Assembly (NCBI RefSeq): GCF_001677475.2
Contig: NZ_CP015229.1
Direction: 5' to 3' (one strand)
DNA: 64,000 bases
From: Escherichia coli
GTDB lineage: Bacteria; Pseudomonadota; Gammaproteobacteria; Enterobacterales; Enterobacteriaceae
Part shown: positions 5,612 to 21,373 of the stretch, one piece after another
Numbering within the stretch: position 1 is the first letter of the stretch
How the letters are laid out: each line of letters starts with the position of its first letter
Position numbers and translations under genes: made by a program
Notes under the pieces: model-generated
The model's database searches: none
What the model was told of the DNA's origin: nothing
Seen by the model: the letters and a program-made list of their open reading frames with translations, nothing else

Positions 5612-5642
5612 TGCAAAAATGATAATAAATACGCGTCTTTGA

Positions 5643-5672
5643 CCCCGAAGCCTGTCTTCGGGGTTTCTTTTT
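5643..5672 (+). terminator. Rho-independent terminator downstream of ygaM
   Basis: ccccgaag / cttcgggg stem followed by tttcttttt. Confidence 0.6.
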
Positions 5673-13453: not shown

Positions 13454-14638
13454 ATGACTAAACCTAATCATGAGCTTAGCCCGGCGCTGATCGTGCTGAT
13501 GTCTATCGCCACCGGTCTGGCGGTAGCCAGTAACTATTACGCCCAGCCGTTGCTCGACACCATCGCGCGTAACTTTTCCCTTTCCGCCAGTTCGGCAGGC
13601 TTTATTGTTACCGCCGCGCAGTTGGGCTATGCCGCAGGTCTACTGTTTCTTGTTCCCCTCGGTGATATGTTTGAACGCCGCCGCCTGATTGTCTCGATGA
13701 CCTTACTGGCAGCGGGCGGTATGTTAATCACTGCCAGCAGTCAGTCACTGGCGATGATGATCCTCGGTACGGCATTAACCGGTTTATTCTCAGTCGTGGC
13801 ACAAATTCTGGTTCCGCTGGCAGCGACGCTGGCTTCACCGGACAAACGCGGCAAAGTGGTCGGCACCATTATGAGCGGGCTGCTGTTGGGGATCTTGCTG
13901 GCACGAACCGTTGCCGGGTTGCTGGCAAACCTCGGCGGCTGGCGCACCGTCTTTTGGGTTGCCTCGGTGTTAATGGCACTGATGGCGCTGGCATTATGGC
14001 GTGGTCTGCCACAAATGAAATCAGAAACCCACCTCAACTACCCACAGTTGCTTGGTTCCGTTTTCAGCATGTTTATCAGCGATAAGATCCTGCGCACCCG
14101 CGCGTTGCTGGGCTGCCTGACCTTTGCCAACTTCAGCATTCTCTGGACCTCAATGGCCTTTTTGCTTGCCGCTCCACCTTTTAACTACAGCGATGGTGTA
14201 ATTGGTCTGTTTGGACTTGCGGGAGCTGCCGGAGCGTTGGGCGCTCGTCCGGCGGGCGGTTTTGCCGACAAGGGCAAATCGCACCACACAACAACTTTCG
14301 GTCTGCTGCTGCTGTTACTTTCATGGCTGGCAATCTGGTTTGGTCACACTTCCGTACTGGCGCTGATTATCGGCATTCTGGTGCTGGACCTCACCGTGCA
14401 GGGCGTGCATATCACTAACCAGACGGTAATTTATCGAATACACCCTGATGCGCGTAATCGCCTGACCGCAGGTTACATGACCAGCTACTTTATTGGCGGT
14501 GCCGCCGGTTCGCTAATTTCAGCCTCAGCCTGGCAACATGGCGGTTGGGCTGGCGTTTGTCTGGCTGGCGCGACGATTGCCCTGGTTAACTTACTGGTCT
14601 GGTGGCGAGGTTTTCATCGTCAGGAAGCCGCAAATTAA
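13454..14638 (+). CDS. ygaY: MFS transporter YgaY (uninterrupted 394 codons here)
   Basis: 394-aa ORF with MFS-like hydrophobic pattern; synteny between proX and ygaZ. Confidence 0.8.
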   Translation: MTKPNHELSPALIVLMSIATGLAVASNYYAQPLLDTIARNFSLSASSAGFIVTAAQLGYAAGLLFLVPLGDMFERRRLIVSMTLLAAGGMLITASSQSLAMMILGTALTGLFSVVAQILVPLAATLASPDKRGKVVGTIMSGLLLGILLARTVAGLLANLGGWRTVFWVASVLMALMALALWRGLPQMKSETHLNYPQLLGSVFSMFISDKILRTRALLGCLTFANFSILWTSMAFLLAAPPFNYSDGVIGLFGLAGAAGALGARPAGGFADKGKSHHTTTFGLLLLLLSWLAIWFGHTSVLALIIGILVLDLTVQGVHITNQTVIYRIHPDARNRLTAGYMTSYFIGGAAGSLISASAWQHGGWAGVCLAGATIALVNLLVWWRGFHRQEAAN

Positions 14639-14761: not shown

Positions 14762-15499
14762 ATGGAAAGCCCTACTCCACAGCCTGCTCCTGGTTCGGCG
14801 ACCTTCATGGAAGGATGCAAAGACAGTTTACCGATTGTTATTAGTTATATTCCGGTGGCCTTTGCGTTCGGTCTGAATGCGACCCGTCTGGGATTCTCTC
14901 CTCTCGAAAGCGTTTTTTTCTCCTGCATCATTTATGCAGGCGCGAGCCAGTTCGTCATTACCGCGATGCTGGCAGCCGGGAGTAGTTTGTGGGTTGCTGC
15001 ACTGACCGTCATGGCAATGGATGTTCGCCATGTGTTGTATGGCCCGTCACTGCGTAGCCGTATTATTCAGCGTCTGCAAAAATCGAAAACCGCCCTGTGG
15101 GCGTTTGGCCTGACGGATGAGGTTTTTGCCGCCGCAACCGCAAAACTGGTACGCAATAATCGCCGCTGGAGCGAGAACTGGATGATCGGCATTGCCTTCA
15201 GTTCATGGTCATCGTGGGTATTTGGTACGGTAATAGGGGCATTCTCCGGCAGCGGCTTGCTGCAAGGTTATCCCGCCGTTGAAGCTGCATTAGGTTTTAT
15301 GCTTCCGGCACTCTTTATGAGTTTCCTGCTCGCCTCTTTCCAGCGCAAACAATCTCTTTGCGTTACCGCAGCGTTAGTTGGTGCCCTTGCAGGCGTAACG
15401 CTATTTTCTATTCCCGTCGCCATTCTGGCAGGCATTGTCTGTGGCTGCCTCACTGCGTTAATCCAGGCATTCTGGCAAGGAGCGCCCGATGAGCTATGA
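14762..15499 (+). CDS. ygaZ: AzlC-family branched-chain amino acid exporter subunit YgaZ
   Basis: 245-aa hydrophobic ORF; synteny. Confidence 0.85.
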
Positions 15500-15824
15500 G
15501 GTTCTGCTGCTTGGGTTACTGGTTGGCGCGGCGAATTATTGCTTCCGCTATTTGCCGCTGCGCCTGCGTGTGGGTAATGCCCGCCCAACCAAACGTGGCG
15601 CGGTAGGTATTTTGCTCGACACCATTGGCATCGCCTCGATATGCGCTCTGCTGGTTGTCTCTACCGCACCAGAAGTGATGCACGATACACGCCGTTTCGT
15701 GCCCACGCTGGTCGGCTTCGCGGTACTGGGTGCCAGTTTCTATAAAACACGCAGCATTATCATCCCAACACTGCTTAGTGCGCTGGCCTATGGGCTCGCC
15801 TGGAAAGTGATGGCGATTATATAA
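15489..15824 (+). CDS. ygaH: AzlD-family exporter small subunit YgaH
   Basis: 111-aa hydrophobic ORF overlapping the ygaZ 3' end. Confidence 0.85.
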
Positions 15825-15914
15825 CCCACAAGAATCATTTTTCTAAAACAATACATTTACTTTATTTGTCACTGTCGTTACTATATCGGCTGAAATTAAT
15901 GAGGTCATACCCAA

Positions 15915-16445
15915 ATGGATAGTTCGTTTACGCCCATTGAACAAATGCTAAAATTTCGCGCCAGCCGCCACGAAGATTTTCCTTATCAGGAGATCCTTCT
16001 GACTCGTCTTTGCATGCACATGCAAAGCAAGCTGCTGGAGAACCGCAATAAAATGCTGAAGGCTCAGGGGATTAACGAGACGTTGTTTATGGCGTTGATT
16101 ACGCTGGAGTCTCAGGAAAACCACAGTATTCAGCCTTCTGAATTGAGTTGTGCTCTTGGATCATCCCGTACCAACGCGACGCGTATTGCCGATGAACTGG
16201 AAAAACGCGGTTGGATCGAACGTCGTGAAAGCGATAACGATCGCCGCTGCCTGCATCTGCAATTAACGGAAAAAGGTCACGAGTTTTTGCGCGAGGTTTT
16301 ACCACCGCAGCATAACTGCCTGCATCAACTCTGGTCCGCGCTCAGCACAACAGAAAAAGATCAGCTCGAGCAAATCACCCGCAAATTGCTCTCCCGTCTC
16401 GACCAGATGGAACAAGACGGTGTGGTTCTCGAAGCGATGAGCTAA
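15915..16445 (+). CDS. mprA: MarR-family repressor MprA (EmrR)
   Basis: 176-aa ORF with MarR-type winged helix; immediately upstream of emrAB. Confidence 0.9.
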
Positions 16446-16492
16446 CGCGTCATCTCGCTCAAAAATCCAGATTTATAAAAGAAAAAATGACT

Positions 16493-16521
16493 GGCCAGCA
16501 TCGCAACATGCTGGCCTTTTT
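16493..16521 (+). terminator. Hairpin plus U-tract between mprA and emrA (terminator or attenuator)
   Basis: ggccagcat-cgcaac-atgctggcc perfect 9-bp stem followed by tttttgg. Confidence 0.5.
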
Positions 16522-16571
16522 GGCAAGCAGGTCGGCTCAGCCGATGAGTTAAGAAGATCGTGGAGAACAAT

Positions 16572-17744
16572 ATGAGCGCAAATGCGGAGACTCAAACCCC
16601 GCAGCAACCGGTAAAGAAGAGCGGCAAACGTAAGCGTCTGCTCCTCCTTCTCACCTTGCTCTTTATAATTATTGCCGTAGCGATAGGGATTTATTGGTTT
16701 TTGGTACTGCGTCATTTCGAAGAAACCGATGACGCATACGTGGCAGGGAATCAGATTCAAATTATGTCTCAGGTGTCTGGCAGCGTGACGAAAGTCTGGG
16801 CCGATAACACCGATTTTATAAAAGAAGGCGATGTTCTGGTCACTCTCGACCCGACAGATGCTCGCCAGGCGTTTGAAAAAGCCAAAACTGCACTGGCTTC
16901 CAGCGTTCGCCAAACCCACCAGCTGATGATTAACAGCAAACAGTTGCAGGCGAATATTGAGGTGCAAAAAATCGCCCTCGCGAAAGCACAAAGCGACTAC
17001 AACCGCCGAGTGCCGCTGGGCAATGCCAACCTGATTGGTCGCGAAGAGCTGCAACACGCCCGCGACGCCGTCACCAGTGCCCAGGCGCAACTGGACGTCG
17101 CTATTCAACAATACAATGCCAATCAGGCGATGATTCTGGGGACTAAACTGGAAGATCAGCCTGCCGTGCAACAGGCTGCCACCGAAGTACGTAACGCCTG
17201 GCTGGCGCTGGAGCGTACCCGTATTGTCAGTCCGATGACCGGTTATGTTTCCCGTCGTGCCGTGCAACCGGGTGCGCAAATTAGCCCAACGACGCCGCTG
17301 ATGGCGGTCGTTCCAGCCACCAATATGTGGGTGGATGCCAACTTTAAAGAGACGCAGATTGCCAATATGCGCATCGGTCAGCCGGTCACCATCACCACCG
17401 ATATTTACGGCGATGATGTGAAATACACCGGTAAAGTGGTTGGTCTGGATATGGGCACAGGTAGCGCATTCTCACTGCTTCCGGCGCAAAATGCGACCGG
17501 TAACTGGATCAAAGTCGTTCAGCGCCTGCCTGTGCGTATTGAACTGGACCAGAAACAGCTGGAGCAATACCCGCTGCGTATCGGTTTGTCCACGCTGGTG
17601 AGCGTCAATACCACTAACCGTGACGGTCAGGTACTGGCAAATAAAGTACGTTCCACACCGGTCGCGGTAAGTACCGCGCGTGAAATCAGCCTGGCACCTG
17701 TCAATAAACTGATCGACGATATCGTAAAAGCTAACGCTGGCTAA
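16572..17744 (+). CDS. emrA: Multidrug efflux membrane fusion protein EmrA
   Basis: ORF 16560..17744; recognised start MSANAETQTPQQ at internal Met. Confidence 0.9.
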   Translation: MSANAETQTPQQPVKKSGKRKRLLLLLTLLFIIIAVAIGIYWFLVLRHFEETDDAYVAGNQIQIMSQVSGSVTKVWADNTDFIKEGDVLVTLDPTDARQAFEKAKTALASSVRQTHQLMINSKQLQANIEVQKIALAKAQSDYNRRVPLGNANLIGREELQHARDAVTSAQAQLDVAIQQYNANQAMILGTKLEDQPAVQQAATEVRNAWLALERTRIVSPMTGYVSRRAVQPGAQISPTTPLMAVVPATNMWVDANFKETQIANMRIGQPVTITTDIYGDDVKYTGKVVGLDMGTGSAFSLLPAQNATGNWIKVVQRLPVRIELDQKQLEQYPLRIGLSTLVSVNTTNRDGQVLANKVRSTPVAVSTAREISLAPVNKLIDDIVKANAG

Positions 17745-17760: not shown

Positions 17761-19299
17761 ATGCAACAGCAAAAACCGCTGGAAGGCGCGCAACTGGTCA
17801 TTATGACGATTGCGCTGTCACTGGCGACATTCATGCAGGTGCTGGACTCCACCATTGCTAACGTGGCGATCCCCACTATCGCCGGGAATCTGGGCTCATC
17901 GCTCAGCCAGGGAACGTGGGTAATCACTTCTTTCGGGGTGGCGAATGCCATCTCGATCCCGCTTACCGGCTGGCTGGCAAAGCGCGTCGGGGAAGTGAAA
18001 CTGTTCCTCTGGTCAACCATCGCCTTTGCTATTGCGTCGTGGGCGTGTGGTGTCTCCAGCAGCCTGAATATGCTGATCTTCTTCCGCGTGATTCAGGGGA
18101 TTGTCGCCGGGCCGTTGATCCCGCTTTCGCAAAGTCTATTGCTGAATAACTACCCGCCAGCCAAACGCTCGATCGCGCTGGCACTGTGGTCGATGACGGT
18201 GATTGTCGCGCCAATTTGCGGCCCAATCCTCGGCGGGTATATCAGTGACAATTACCACTGGGGCTGGATATTCTTCATCAACGTACCGATTGGCGTGGCG
18301 GTGGTGTTGATGACACTGCAAACCCTGCGCGGACGCGAAACCCGCACCGAACGGCGGCGGATTGATGCCGTGGGGCTGGCACTGCTGGTTATTGGTATCG
18401 GCAGCCTACAGATTATGCTCGACCGCGGTAAAGAGCTGGACTGGTTTTCATCACAGGAAATTATCATCCTTACCGTGGTGGCAGTGGTGGCTATCTGCTT
18501 CCTGATTGTCTGGGAGCTGACCGACGATAACCCGATAGTCGATCTGTCGTTGTTTAAGTCGCGCAACTTCACCATCGGCTGTTTGTGTATCAGCCTCGCG
18601 TATATGCTCTACTTCGGCGCTATTGTTCTGCTGCCGCAGTTGTTGCAGGAGGTCTACGGTTACACGGCAACGTGGGCAGGTCTGGCCTCTGCGCCGGTAG
18701 GAATTATTCCGGTGATCCTGTCGCCGATTATCGGCCGCTTCGCGCATAAACTGGATATGCGGCGGCTGGTAACCTTCAGCTTTATTATGTATGCCGTCTG
18801 CTTCTACTGGCGTGCCTATACCTTTGAACCGGGTATGGATTTTGGCGCGTCGGCCTGGCCGCAGTTTATCCAGGGGTTTGCGGTGGCCTGCTTCTTTATG
18901 CCGCTGACCACCATTACGCTGTCTGGTTTGCCACCGGAACGACTGGCGGCAGCATCGAGCCTCTCCAACTTTACGCGAACGCTGGCGGGGTCTATCGGCA
19001 CGTCCATCACCACCACCATGTGGACCAACCGCGAGTCGATGCACCATGCGCAGTTGACTGAGTCGGTAAACCCGTTCAACCCGAATGCCCAGGCGATGTA
19101 CAGTCAACTGGAAGGGCTTGGGATGACGCAACAGCAGGCATCAGGCTGGATTGCCCAGCAGATCACCAATCAGGGGCTGATTATTTCCGCCAATGAGATC
19201 TTCTGGATGTCAGCCGGGATATTCCTCGTCCTGCTGGGGCTGGTGTGGTTTGCTAAACCGCCATTTGGCGCAGGTGGCGGCGGAGGCGGTGCGCACTAA
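17761..19299 (+). CDS. emrB: MFS multidrug efflux pump EmrB
   Basis: ORF 17752..19299; recognised start MQQQKPLEGAQL; Gly-rich C-terminal tail. Confidence 0.9.
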   Translation: MQQQKPLEGAQLVIMTIALSLATFMQVLDSTIANVAIPTIAGNLGSSLSQGTWVITSFGVANAISIPLTGWLAKRVGEVKLFLWSTIAFAIASWACGVSSSLNMLIFFRVIQGIVAGPLIPLSQSLLLNNYPPAKRSIALALWSMTVIVAPICGPILGGYISDNYHWGWIFFINVPIGVAVVLMTLQTLRGRETRTERRRIDAVGLALLVIGIGSLQIMLDRGKELDWFSSQEIIILTVVAVVAICFLIVWELTDDNPIVDLSLFKSRNFTIGCLCISLAYMLYFGAIVLLPQLLQEVYGYTATWAGLASAPVGIIPVILSPIIGRFAHKLDMRRLVTFSFIMYAVCFYWRAYTFEPGMDFGASAWPQFIQGFAVACFFMPLTTITLSGLPPERLAAASSLSNFTRTLAGSIGTSITTTMWTNRESMHHAQLTESVNPFNPNAQAMYSQLEGLGMTQQQASGWIAQQITNQGLIISANEIFWMSAGIFLVLLGLVWFAKPPFGAGGGGGGAH

Positions 19300-19309
19300 G
19301 GTTGTCAAA

Positions 19310-19331
19310 GGGAGCTGCGGCTCCCTTTTTA
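19310..19331 (+). terminator. Rho-independent terminator downstream of emrB
   Basis: gggagc-tgcg-gctccc stem followed by ttttt, directly after the emrB stop. Confidence 0.6.
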
Positions 19332-19556: not shown

Positions 19557-20264
19557 ATGAATACCCAACGAAAATACGGGAGAACCTGGCATTACCCTTT
19601 CTCCCCAGGCACCACCAGCGATGACCGTATTAACACCGATTACTGGCAGGATTTACAGGCCATCACGCAATTGGTGCACACAGAAAAACTCGACGGTGAA
19701 AATAACTGCCTTAACCGCTACGGCGTGTTTGCCCGTTCCCATGCCGCGCCTACGCAGTCGGCATGGACCTATAAAATTCGCCAACGCTGGCAACTGCTGA
19801 AAAACGATCTCGGCGATCTGGAGTTGTTTGGTGAAAATCTTTATGCCGTCCATTCGATTGAATATCGCGCCCTGGAGCAGGATTTTTATCTGTTTGCCGT
19901 TCGCTGCCAGGATATGTGGCTGAGCTGGGAAGAGGTGCAGTTTTACGCCGCTCTGTTTGATTTCCCCTGCGTTCCCGAAATCTCCGGCCCGCAGCCGGGG
20001 AATGATGAAAAAAGCTGGCAACGTGATTTTCTGGCGCTGACCAATGCGCGCGGCGCGTTCGATCCCTGGGATACGCAAACCGGGCAACCCTGTACGCTGG
20101 AAGGCATTGTCAGCCGAAATCGTGACGCGTTTTCCGTCGCTGACTTTTCGCATAACGTCTTCAAGTATGTGCGCAAAAATCATGTCAAAACCACCGTGCA
20201 CTGGAAACGACACTGGCAACGGGCGCGGATGGCCCATGAGTTCGCTTATGGAGAACAGTCATGA
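19557..20264 (+). CDS. Minimal ATP-dependent polynucleotide ligase (lysine nucleotidyltransferase family, RNA-ligase-like)
   Basis: 235-aa ORF; motif I K44-L-D-G47, motif III-like F91-G-E-N, motif IV E182-G-I-V, motif V K203-Y-V-R-K207 in canonical order. Confidence 0.7.
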
Positions 20265-21373
20265 TTTGGCAGCTTACCGACGACAAACGCTGGTCGACGC
20301 TACGCCAGCGTTTCAGTTGGGTTGAGGAGATGCATCACACGCCACAAGACCCGGAGCATCATGGTGAAGGTGACGTCGGCGTGCATACGGAAATGGTGCT
20401 TAACGCCCTCGTTACTCAGCCAGAATTCCAGCAACTCCCCGCTCAACAGCAGGAAGTTTTATGGGCGGCGGCGTTATTGCATGATGTTGAAAAGCGCAGC
20501 ACTACCGTGCAGGAAAACGGACGTATTCAGTCTCCAGGCCATGCTCGTCGGGGCGAACTGACGGCCCGACAAATTTTATGGCGCGATATCCCAACGCCGT
20601 TCGTGCTACGCGAGCAAATTGTTGCGCTGGTGCGTCTGCATGGGTTACCGCTATGGTTACTGGAACGTCCGGAACCGGAGCGTTTGCTGCTCACGGCTGC
20701 AATGCGCATCGACACGCGTCTGCTCGCTTTGCTTGCTCGTGCCGACCTGCTTGGTCGCCAAAGCCCGGATCAGCAATCAATGCTGGAACGCATCGATCTG
20801 TTCGAGCTGTTTTGCCATGAGCAACAATGCTGGGGAAAAGTGCGCCCGTTCGTTTCTGATTCCGCACGCTGGCACTACCTGACTCATGAGCAAAGTTCTC
20901 CTGATTTTGTTCCCTGGGGGGCTGAACCTTTTGAGGTTATTTTGCTGTGTGGCTTACCGGGTATGGGCAAAGATCGCTATATCAGTGAACAGTGCCAGGG
21001 AATGGACGTTATCAGCCTTGATGATATGCGGCGGCGAATCAATGCCAGCCCGGACGACAAAACCGCCACCGGGCGTATTGTGCAACAGGCAAAAGAAGAG
21101 GCGCGCGTTTTTTTACGCCAGAAAAAGCCGTTCATCTGGAATGCAACGAACATTACCCGCCAGCTGCGTAGCCAGCTCATCAGCTTGTTTACGGCCTACG
21201 GTGCAAGGGTAAAAATTATCTATCTGGAAGTGCCGTGGGCACAATGGAAGCAGCAAAATGCCAGGCGTGTGTATGCAGTTCCTGAAGTGGTCGTAATGCG
21301 GATGGCCTCAAGGCTGGAAGTTCCTCAACCTGATGAAGCACATAGCGTGGAGTATCGGGTGATTGAAAGGTAA
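20261..21373 (+). CDS. HD-domain phosphoesterase fused to a T4-Pnk-like 5'-OH polynucleotide kinase (HD-Pnk end-healing enzyme)
   Basis: 370-aa ORF; N-terminal HD signature ([11 protein letters not shown] ... LLHDVEK); C-terminal P-loop GLPGMGKD then [24 protein letters not shown] and [16 protein letters not shown], matching T4 Pnk as recalled; start overlaps the ligase stop (ATGA). Confidence 0.7.

Follow-up and report, generated by a model that had tools for sequence, protein, structure and literature searches.

A probable leaky intrinsic terminator between mprA and emrA of Escherichia coli and the conservation of its hairpin among enteric bacteria

The region between the repressor gene mprA and the efflux genes emrAB of Escherichia coli contains a stable stem-loop, here called SL1, directly followed by a short U-tract. 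Together these very probably constitute an intrinsic (Rho-independent) terminator within the mprA-emrAB operon, with leaky read-through to emrAB. The terminator is already described in E. coli, with a 3' end mapped in 2021 and a printed description from 2025. What is new beyond the published description is the variation of the tail among genera and the presence of a second small stem-loop, SL2. A terminator in this position would account for repressor mRNA greatly exceeding pump mRNA despite the shared operon, and bears on the way in which EmrAB-mediated drug efflux stays low and inducible. The comparative observations, among them a natural IS4 insertion in the hairpin of a clinical isolate, are a modest lead on how other enterics set the ratio of repressor to pump.

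The mprA-emrA locus

The window analyzed here is a 64-kb stretch of E. coli DNA in which ygaZ, ygaH, mprA, the intergenic region, emrA and emrB follow one another, all on the plus strand. The MarR-family repressor gene mprA (emrR) occupies 15915..16445 (+), with 16445 the final nucleotide of its stop codon; it is identified from the open reading frame list and from the RefSeq annotation of identical DNA, in which the flanking genes are named emrR, emrA and ygaH. The genes emrA (16572-17744, +, start codon ATG at 16572-16574) and emrB (17761-19299, +) are assigned from the open reading frame list and the K-12 annotation. Between mprA and emrA lies an intergenic region of 126 nt (16446-16571, +) that is unannotated in RefSeq. 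The first-pass annotation had delimited this interval as 16446-16559; the start is correct, but the region runs 12 nt further than that end.

The 900 bases around the site have a match in 5417 of 5426 complete E. coli genomes, in one copy each, which is chromosomal in every case. Comparison of 15480-16600 with K-12 MG1655 shows just three differences, all at coding positions, and an mprA-emrA intergenic region that is 100% identical. Because of this identity, experiments in K-12 are directly applicable to the window. Window positions are converted to NC_000913.3 by adding 2,794,855, a conversion that rests on the 100% identical alignment.

Further from the site, the window departs from K-12 in two places. 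The gene ygaY (13454-14638, +), annotated as a pseudogene in K-12, is an intact MFS-type open reading frame of 394 amino acids. Past emrB, where K-12 has luxS directly next, two open reading frames are present at 19557-21373 (+), encoding a 235-amino acid RNA_ligase (PF09414) protein and a 370-amino acid AAA_33 kinase-like protein. They resemble an RNA-repair-type gene pair and appear to be an insertion relative to K-12.

The SL1 hairpin and its U-tract

SL1 (16493..16516, +) reads GGCCAGCAT-CGCAAC-ATGCTGGCC and is evident both in the sequence itself and in a terminator scan. Its stem, GGCCAGCAU against AUGCUGGCC, consists of nine perfect pairs, six of which are G-C, closed by the loop CGCAAC. 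The folding energy is -16.7 kcal/mol, and the hairpin is retained in both the minimum free energy (MFE) and the centroid structures of the whole intergenic region. The U-tract (TTTTT, 16517..16521, +) directly abuts the stem, is followed by GG, and falls short of the canonical 7-8 U. SL1 is located 47 nt past the mprA stop, and the terminator 50 nt ahead of the emrA ATG at 16572. According to the available text of PMC4824070, a terminating ribosome suppresses terminator hairpins only at a distance of a few base pairs; at 47 nt past the stop codon, SL1 is therefore outside the range of such suppression.

Local folding z-scores are modest (-1.8 and -2.2), and folding energy alone is thus not decisive for SL1. 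A direct count gives a better test against chance: the 64-kb window holds three sites with a perfect 9-bp stem, a loop of 3-8 nt and at least 5 T among the 8 nt that follow, whereas 200 dinucleotide shuffles yield 0.11 +/- 0.31. SL1 with its U-tract is not a chance feature, and the hairpin and U-tract that the first-pass annotation had placed between mprA and emrA are borne out by sequence, fold and shuffle count. The other two sites are located at 5642-5664 (+) and at 19307..19328 (+). The latter, AAAGGGAGC-TGCG-GCTCCCTTT followed by TTATTT, is found just 3' of the emrB stop, and is likely to be the terminator at the end of the operon.

Directly 5' of SL1, sequence and alignment reveal an A-rich block, AAAAGAAAAAA (16477..16487, +), which is A-rich in most Enterobacteriaceae and contains ARN repeats, the type of motif recognized by Hfq through its distal face. 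It is possible to speculate that Hfq binds to this block.

The RNA 3' end and the mprA transcript

A 3' end at this element has been detected in vivo. The Term-seq data of Adams et al. 2021 (PMC7815308, eLife) include a 3' end at K-12 position 2811376 (+), given in the LB OD600 ~0.4 sheet of Supplementary file 1 with a mean of 861 reads and classed as 'orphan'. The sequence printed for this end is ATTTATAAAAGAAAAAATGACTGGCCAGCATCGCAACATGCTGGCCTTTTT before the dividing mark and GGCAAGCAGG after it, or, in a shorter form, ...GGCCAGCATCGCAACATGCTGGCCTTTTT before the mark and GGCAAGCAGG after it. This position corresponds to 16521 in the window, the fifth and last T of the U-tract. Term-seq or 3'-end mapping, which had been suggested as a check on the hairpin, thus already has a published result. 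The end is missing from the LB 2.0 and M63 sheets, and is accordingly called in one of three growth conditions. The tables of Adams 2021 contain no further 3' end between 2811000 and 2811999 in K-12. Nor do they give any bicyclomycin-sensitive (Rho-termination) region in the same interval, which is weak evidence of independence from Rho, since the locus is weakly expressed.

A second line of evidence comes from a study of the sRNA UhpU (PMC12704781, PNAS 2025), which, in the portion of the paper available, names the site as a Rho-independent terminator. In the same portion, northern blots reveal a main mprA isoform of ~900 nt rather than a ~3.5-kb mprA-emrAB transcript, and 5' RACE places the start of the mprA RNA within ygaH, at codon 49, with a predicted length of 888 nt to the terminator. 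Given the ygaH start at 15489, codon 49 is located at 15633-15635, and 888 nt counted from 15634 end at 16521, in agreement with the terminator. As far as the available text of PMC12704781 and the tables of PMC7815308 go, the K-12 mprA-emrA terminator and the one considered here are the same element, with the same DNA, the same 3' end coordinate and the same interpretation; there is no difference in E. coli. The ~900-nt isoform, as given in the available part of PMC12704781, also backs the earlier suggestion that the hairpin uncouples repressor and pump transcript levels. Both mprA and emrA go unmentioned in the SMRT-Cappable-seq supplements, and a search for a published read-through fraction across SL1 found none.

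The low read count (861) and the detection of the end in only one of the three conditions count against the terminator, and Term-seq as a method cannot separate RNAs that were terminated there from RNAs whose 3' ends were trimmed as far as a stable hairpin. We infer that the 3' end at 16521 arises from termination and not from trimming, and that termination at SL1 is both incomplete and constitutive. The first-pass annotation had proposed a partial terminator or attenuator. The terminator is supported by the Term-seq end and the northern blots and 'partial' is a deduction; an attenuator, in the sense of conditional read-through, is not supported.

A model for leaky termination

In the model favored here, RNA polymerase from the mprA promoters would transcribe the GC-rich SL1 and the five U's that follow it. 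A large share of the complexes would release their RNA at the U-tract, producing mprA-only transcripts ending at 16521, while the remaining polymerases would pass SL1 and generate emrAB mRNA. Repressor mRNA would then be in excess over pump mRNA derived from the same promoters. Sub-maximal termination would additionally leave the pump genes expressible once MprA leaves its operator. A scan of the plus strand from 15955 to 16929 detected no promoter-like site that might serve as an internal emrA promoter; in combination with the established operon model, this suggests that emrAB expression depends on read-through at SL1.

The element has the features expected of an intrinsic terminator, namely a GC-rich stable hairpin, a U-rich tract abutting the stem, and an in-vivo 3' end at the U-tract. 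Its strength is a separate matter. The short U-tract, five U and then GG, suggests sub-maximal efficiency. For strong terminators, a 2026 preprint proposes a consensus, GC(U)7RU or 'HUB', with a 7-nt U-tract, GC at -11/-10 and RU at -2/-1 (bioRxiv 10.64898/2026.05.29.728758). SL1 resembles it in that a GC-rich stem directly abuts the U-run. However, ...CUGGCC UUUUU GGCA has five U rather than seven, the stem ends in GGCC and is followed by the tail UUUUUGGCA, and no register fits both edges of the consensus. This departure concerns the strength of SL1 and not its status as a terminator. SL1 would be expected to be weaker than a consensus GC(U)7RU terminator, and the U5 tract without a clean GC(U)7RU register would fit, though not prove, a weak-to-moderate terminator.

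Conservation across Enterobacterales

Searching with a degenerate DNA pattern that encodes DELEKRGWI, a motif of EmrR, gave 120 DNA stretches (L002-L121), nearly all of them from Enterobacterales. A GCCAG...CUGGC hairpin 3' of the emrR stop is present at 88 of the 115 loci in which the emrR 3' end is complete, and the median core start is +49 from the stop. These hairpins comprise 75 distinct variants, with loops of 3-14 nt and free loop sequence. Covariation is apparent on both sides of the core. The second inward pair is A-U in 47 cases and G-C in 18, and the third inward pair is G-C (21), U-A (8), C-G (7) or A-U (6); the first outward pair is G-C (51), G-U (12) or U-A (8). The hairpin is missing in the loci from Serratia, Rahnella, Hafnia, Edwardsiella, Dickeya and Lonsdalea, where emrA is often non-adjacent or the spacer unrelated.

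When 56 Enterobacteriaceae intergenic regions are aligned with MAFFT, 96.4% of the cells assigned to the SL1 stem are paired, and double changes occur in four of the nine pairs. The observed values are not attained in any of 500 shuffles, and pairing in slid controls is only 23-44%. Within Enterobacteriaceae, the outer eight stem pairs are almost invariant.

The tail is far more flexible than the stem. CUUUUUGGC, the tail found in E. coli and E. albertii, is in the minority; most Enterobacteriaceae, represented by 31 variants, have CUUUCUGA(C/U). Others have CUGUCUGA or CUGUCAGG, which are essentially without a U-tract, and the Pantoea tail is UUUUUCGAC. Many genera thus keep the hairpin with an interrupted tail (UUUCUGA) or with nearly no U-tract (CUGUCUGAC, CUGUCAGG). 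Since the stem is kept despite a weak or missing U-tract, canonical termination alone does not explain its conservation. It may be that canonical termination is not the sole selected function of the stem, or that weak tails suffice. The cross-genus conservation, the variable U-tract and the second stem-loop are not reported in the available text of PMC12704781 or PMC7815308.

SL2 and a possible intercistronic module

Fold and alignment identify the second small conserved stem-loop, SL2 (GUCGGC UCA GCCGAU, 16531..16545, +), 10 nt past the U-tract and ~17 nt ahead of the emrA Shine-Dalgarno sequence. Pairing of SL2 reaches 91.7% across the 56 Enterobacteriaceae, and three of its five pairs show double changes. 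In the alignment, a nearly invariant leader, AAATAATAAGATCGTGGAGAA, is located 3' of SL2. The Shine-Dalgarno GGAG (16562-16565, +) and the start codon ATG (16572-16574, +) of emrA, assigned from the K-12 annotation and the alignment, fall within the block AAGATCGTGGAGAA (16562..16574), which is nearly invariant between genera. If emrAB RNA is processed, SL2 could stabilize its 5' end.

The conserved hairpin, the weak tails and SL2 in combination hint at a further role, such as RNA stability or processing. One possible, though rather doubtful, extension is that SL1, SL2 and the invariant emrA leader form a single RNA module in Enterobacteriaceae and Erwiniaceae whose function is not, or not only, canonical termination. 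The module would set the repressor-to-pump ratio via processing and stability or via factor-assisted termination, and the Escherichia lineage and a few others would have secondarily tightened it to a U5 terminator. The suggestion comes from comparative sequence data, namely a stem that hardly varies even in genera whose U-tract is interrupted or missing.

Alternative functions of SL1

If SL1 were instead mainly an RNA-stability or processing element, polymerase would read on into emrA, the RNA would be cut or end later, and exonucleases would trim it back to SL1. The single-stranded UUUCUGAC/AAAC segment that separates SL1 from SL2 might, for instance, be where RNase E cuts. SL1 would then protect the mprA 3' end and SL2 would cap the emrAB 5' end, with differential stability setting the ratio. 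Several observations are compatible with such a role: the hairpin is kept in genera with a poor or missing U-tract, a covarying SL2 follows immediately downstream, and the 3' end is just 5 nt beyond the stem, where Term-seq is blind to the difference between trimming and termination. However, an end on the last U of a tract that abuts a GC-rich stem is the canonical intrinsic signature. No downstream Rho-termination region is listed, the authors of PMC12704781, in the text available, read the site as a Rho-independent terminator, and a literature search for cleavage data found none. This alternative is considered unlikely, and is ranked second to the terminator because the E. coli 3' end falls on the U-tract abutting the stem.

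It is more improbable still that SL1 is a regulated attenuator, in which read-through would be switched by a ribosome on a leader open reading frame, by an antiterminator fold, or by Hfq or an sRNA acting on the A-rich block. The conserved ARN-like block is indeed directly 5' of the stem, and the 3' end is called in one of three growth conditions; a single-condition end is equally explained by low expression. A 21-codon open reading frame, MTGQHRNMLAFLASRSAQPMS (16487-16552, +), begins with ATG and extends across both hairpins, but only in E. coli. A leader peptide from this frame was rejected, as the ATG is replaced by CTG, CCG or CGG in other genera, and the frame is probably non-functional. 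For an antiterminator fold, it is relevant that SL1 persists in MFE and centroid alike. A long-range pairing of UCCAGAUUU (16466-16474) with the emrA Shine-Dalgarno region, seen in the single-sequence MFE, was also rejected: across genera its helix is 78.0% paired, compared with 77.6% in shuffles, and 131 of 500 shuffles are as high, so that covariation lends it no support. An Rfam search with E-values up to 10 returned sub-threshold chance matches only, the best of which, isrD (E = 2.4), reaches 17 bits where the gathering score is 37. For a 3'UTR-derived, Hfq-dependent sRNA, too, this sub-threshold isrD match is all that Rfam offers. No conserved alternative structure, leader peptide or Rfam family match of the kind that would be associated with regulated attenuation was thus found.

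A role of the palindrome as DNA bound by a protein dimer, for instance as an additional MprA operator, has a negligible probability: both arms are nearly invariant across Enterobacteriaceae, but the spacer between them varies from 3 to 14 nt, the arms change in a compensatory manner (GGCC to AUGCC/GGCAU; CAU/AUG to CAG/CUG, CAC/GUG or UUG/CAA), the element does not resemble the AT-rich sequence of the mprA promoter region (15850-15900), and an RNA 3' end maps to it. Variable spacing and compensatory changes favor an RNA hairpin over a dimer site of fixed geometry.

Two further candidates were rejected. A REP/BIME-type repeat does not fit the copy number, since the intergenic region occurs at a median of one place per E. 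coli genome and in one copy in the window. In the case of a bidirectional terminator, the minus-strand U-run starts 5 nt past the stem (AGUCAUUUUU), and no minus-strand 3' end is listed.

Comparison with known systems

Leaky intrinsic terminators within operons set the ratio of upstream to downstream expression; examples include rpsU-dnaG-rpoD and the 'tuned' terminators detected by end-enriched RNA-seq. The terminator proposed here is similar in that SL1 and its U-tract are located between co-oriented genes of an operon, with no known internal promoter and with downstream expression dependent on read-through. It differs in that the gene preceding it encodes the repressor of the operon itself, which places the terminator within an autoregulatory loop.

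Intercistronic stabilizer hairpins, such as the REP hairpins between malE and malF and the processing and stability system of papB-papA, offer a second comparison. As in those systems, a stable hairpin is present at the 3' end of the upstream cistron, and the upstream message is the more abundant. Unlike them, SL1 is single-copy and not a REP element, and the 3' end is carried by the adjacent U-tract.

One natural disruption of the element was found. In E. coli AF57, a UK blood-culture isolate (NZ_OZ546943.1), an IS4 is inserted in the right arm of SL1 (L122, 1575-3001; equivalent to window positions ~16502-16513) with a 12-bp target duplication, CGCAACATGCTG. The insertion splits emrR from emrAB and destroys the terminator. 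This natural knock-out could alter emrAB expression.
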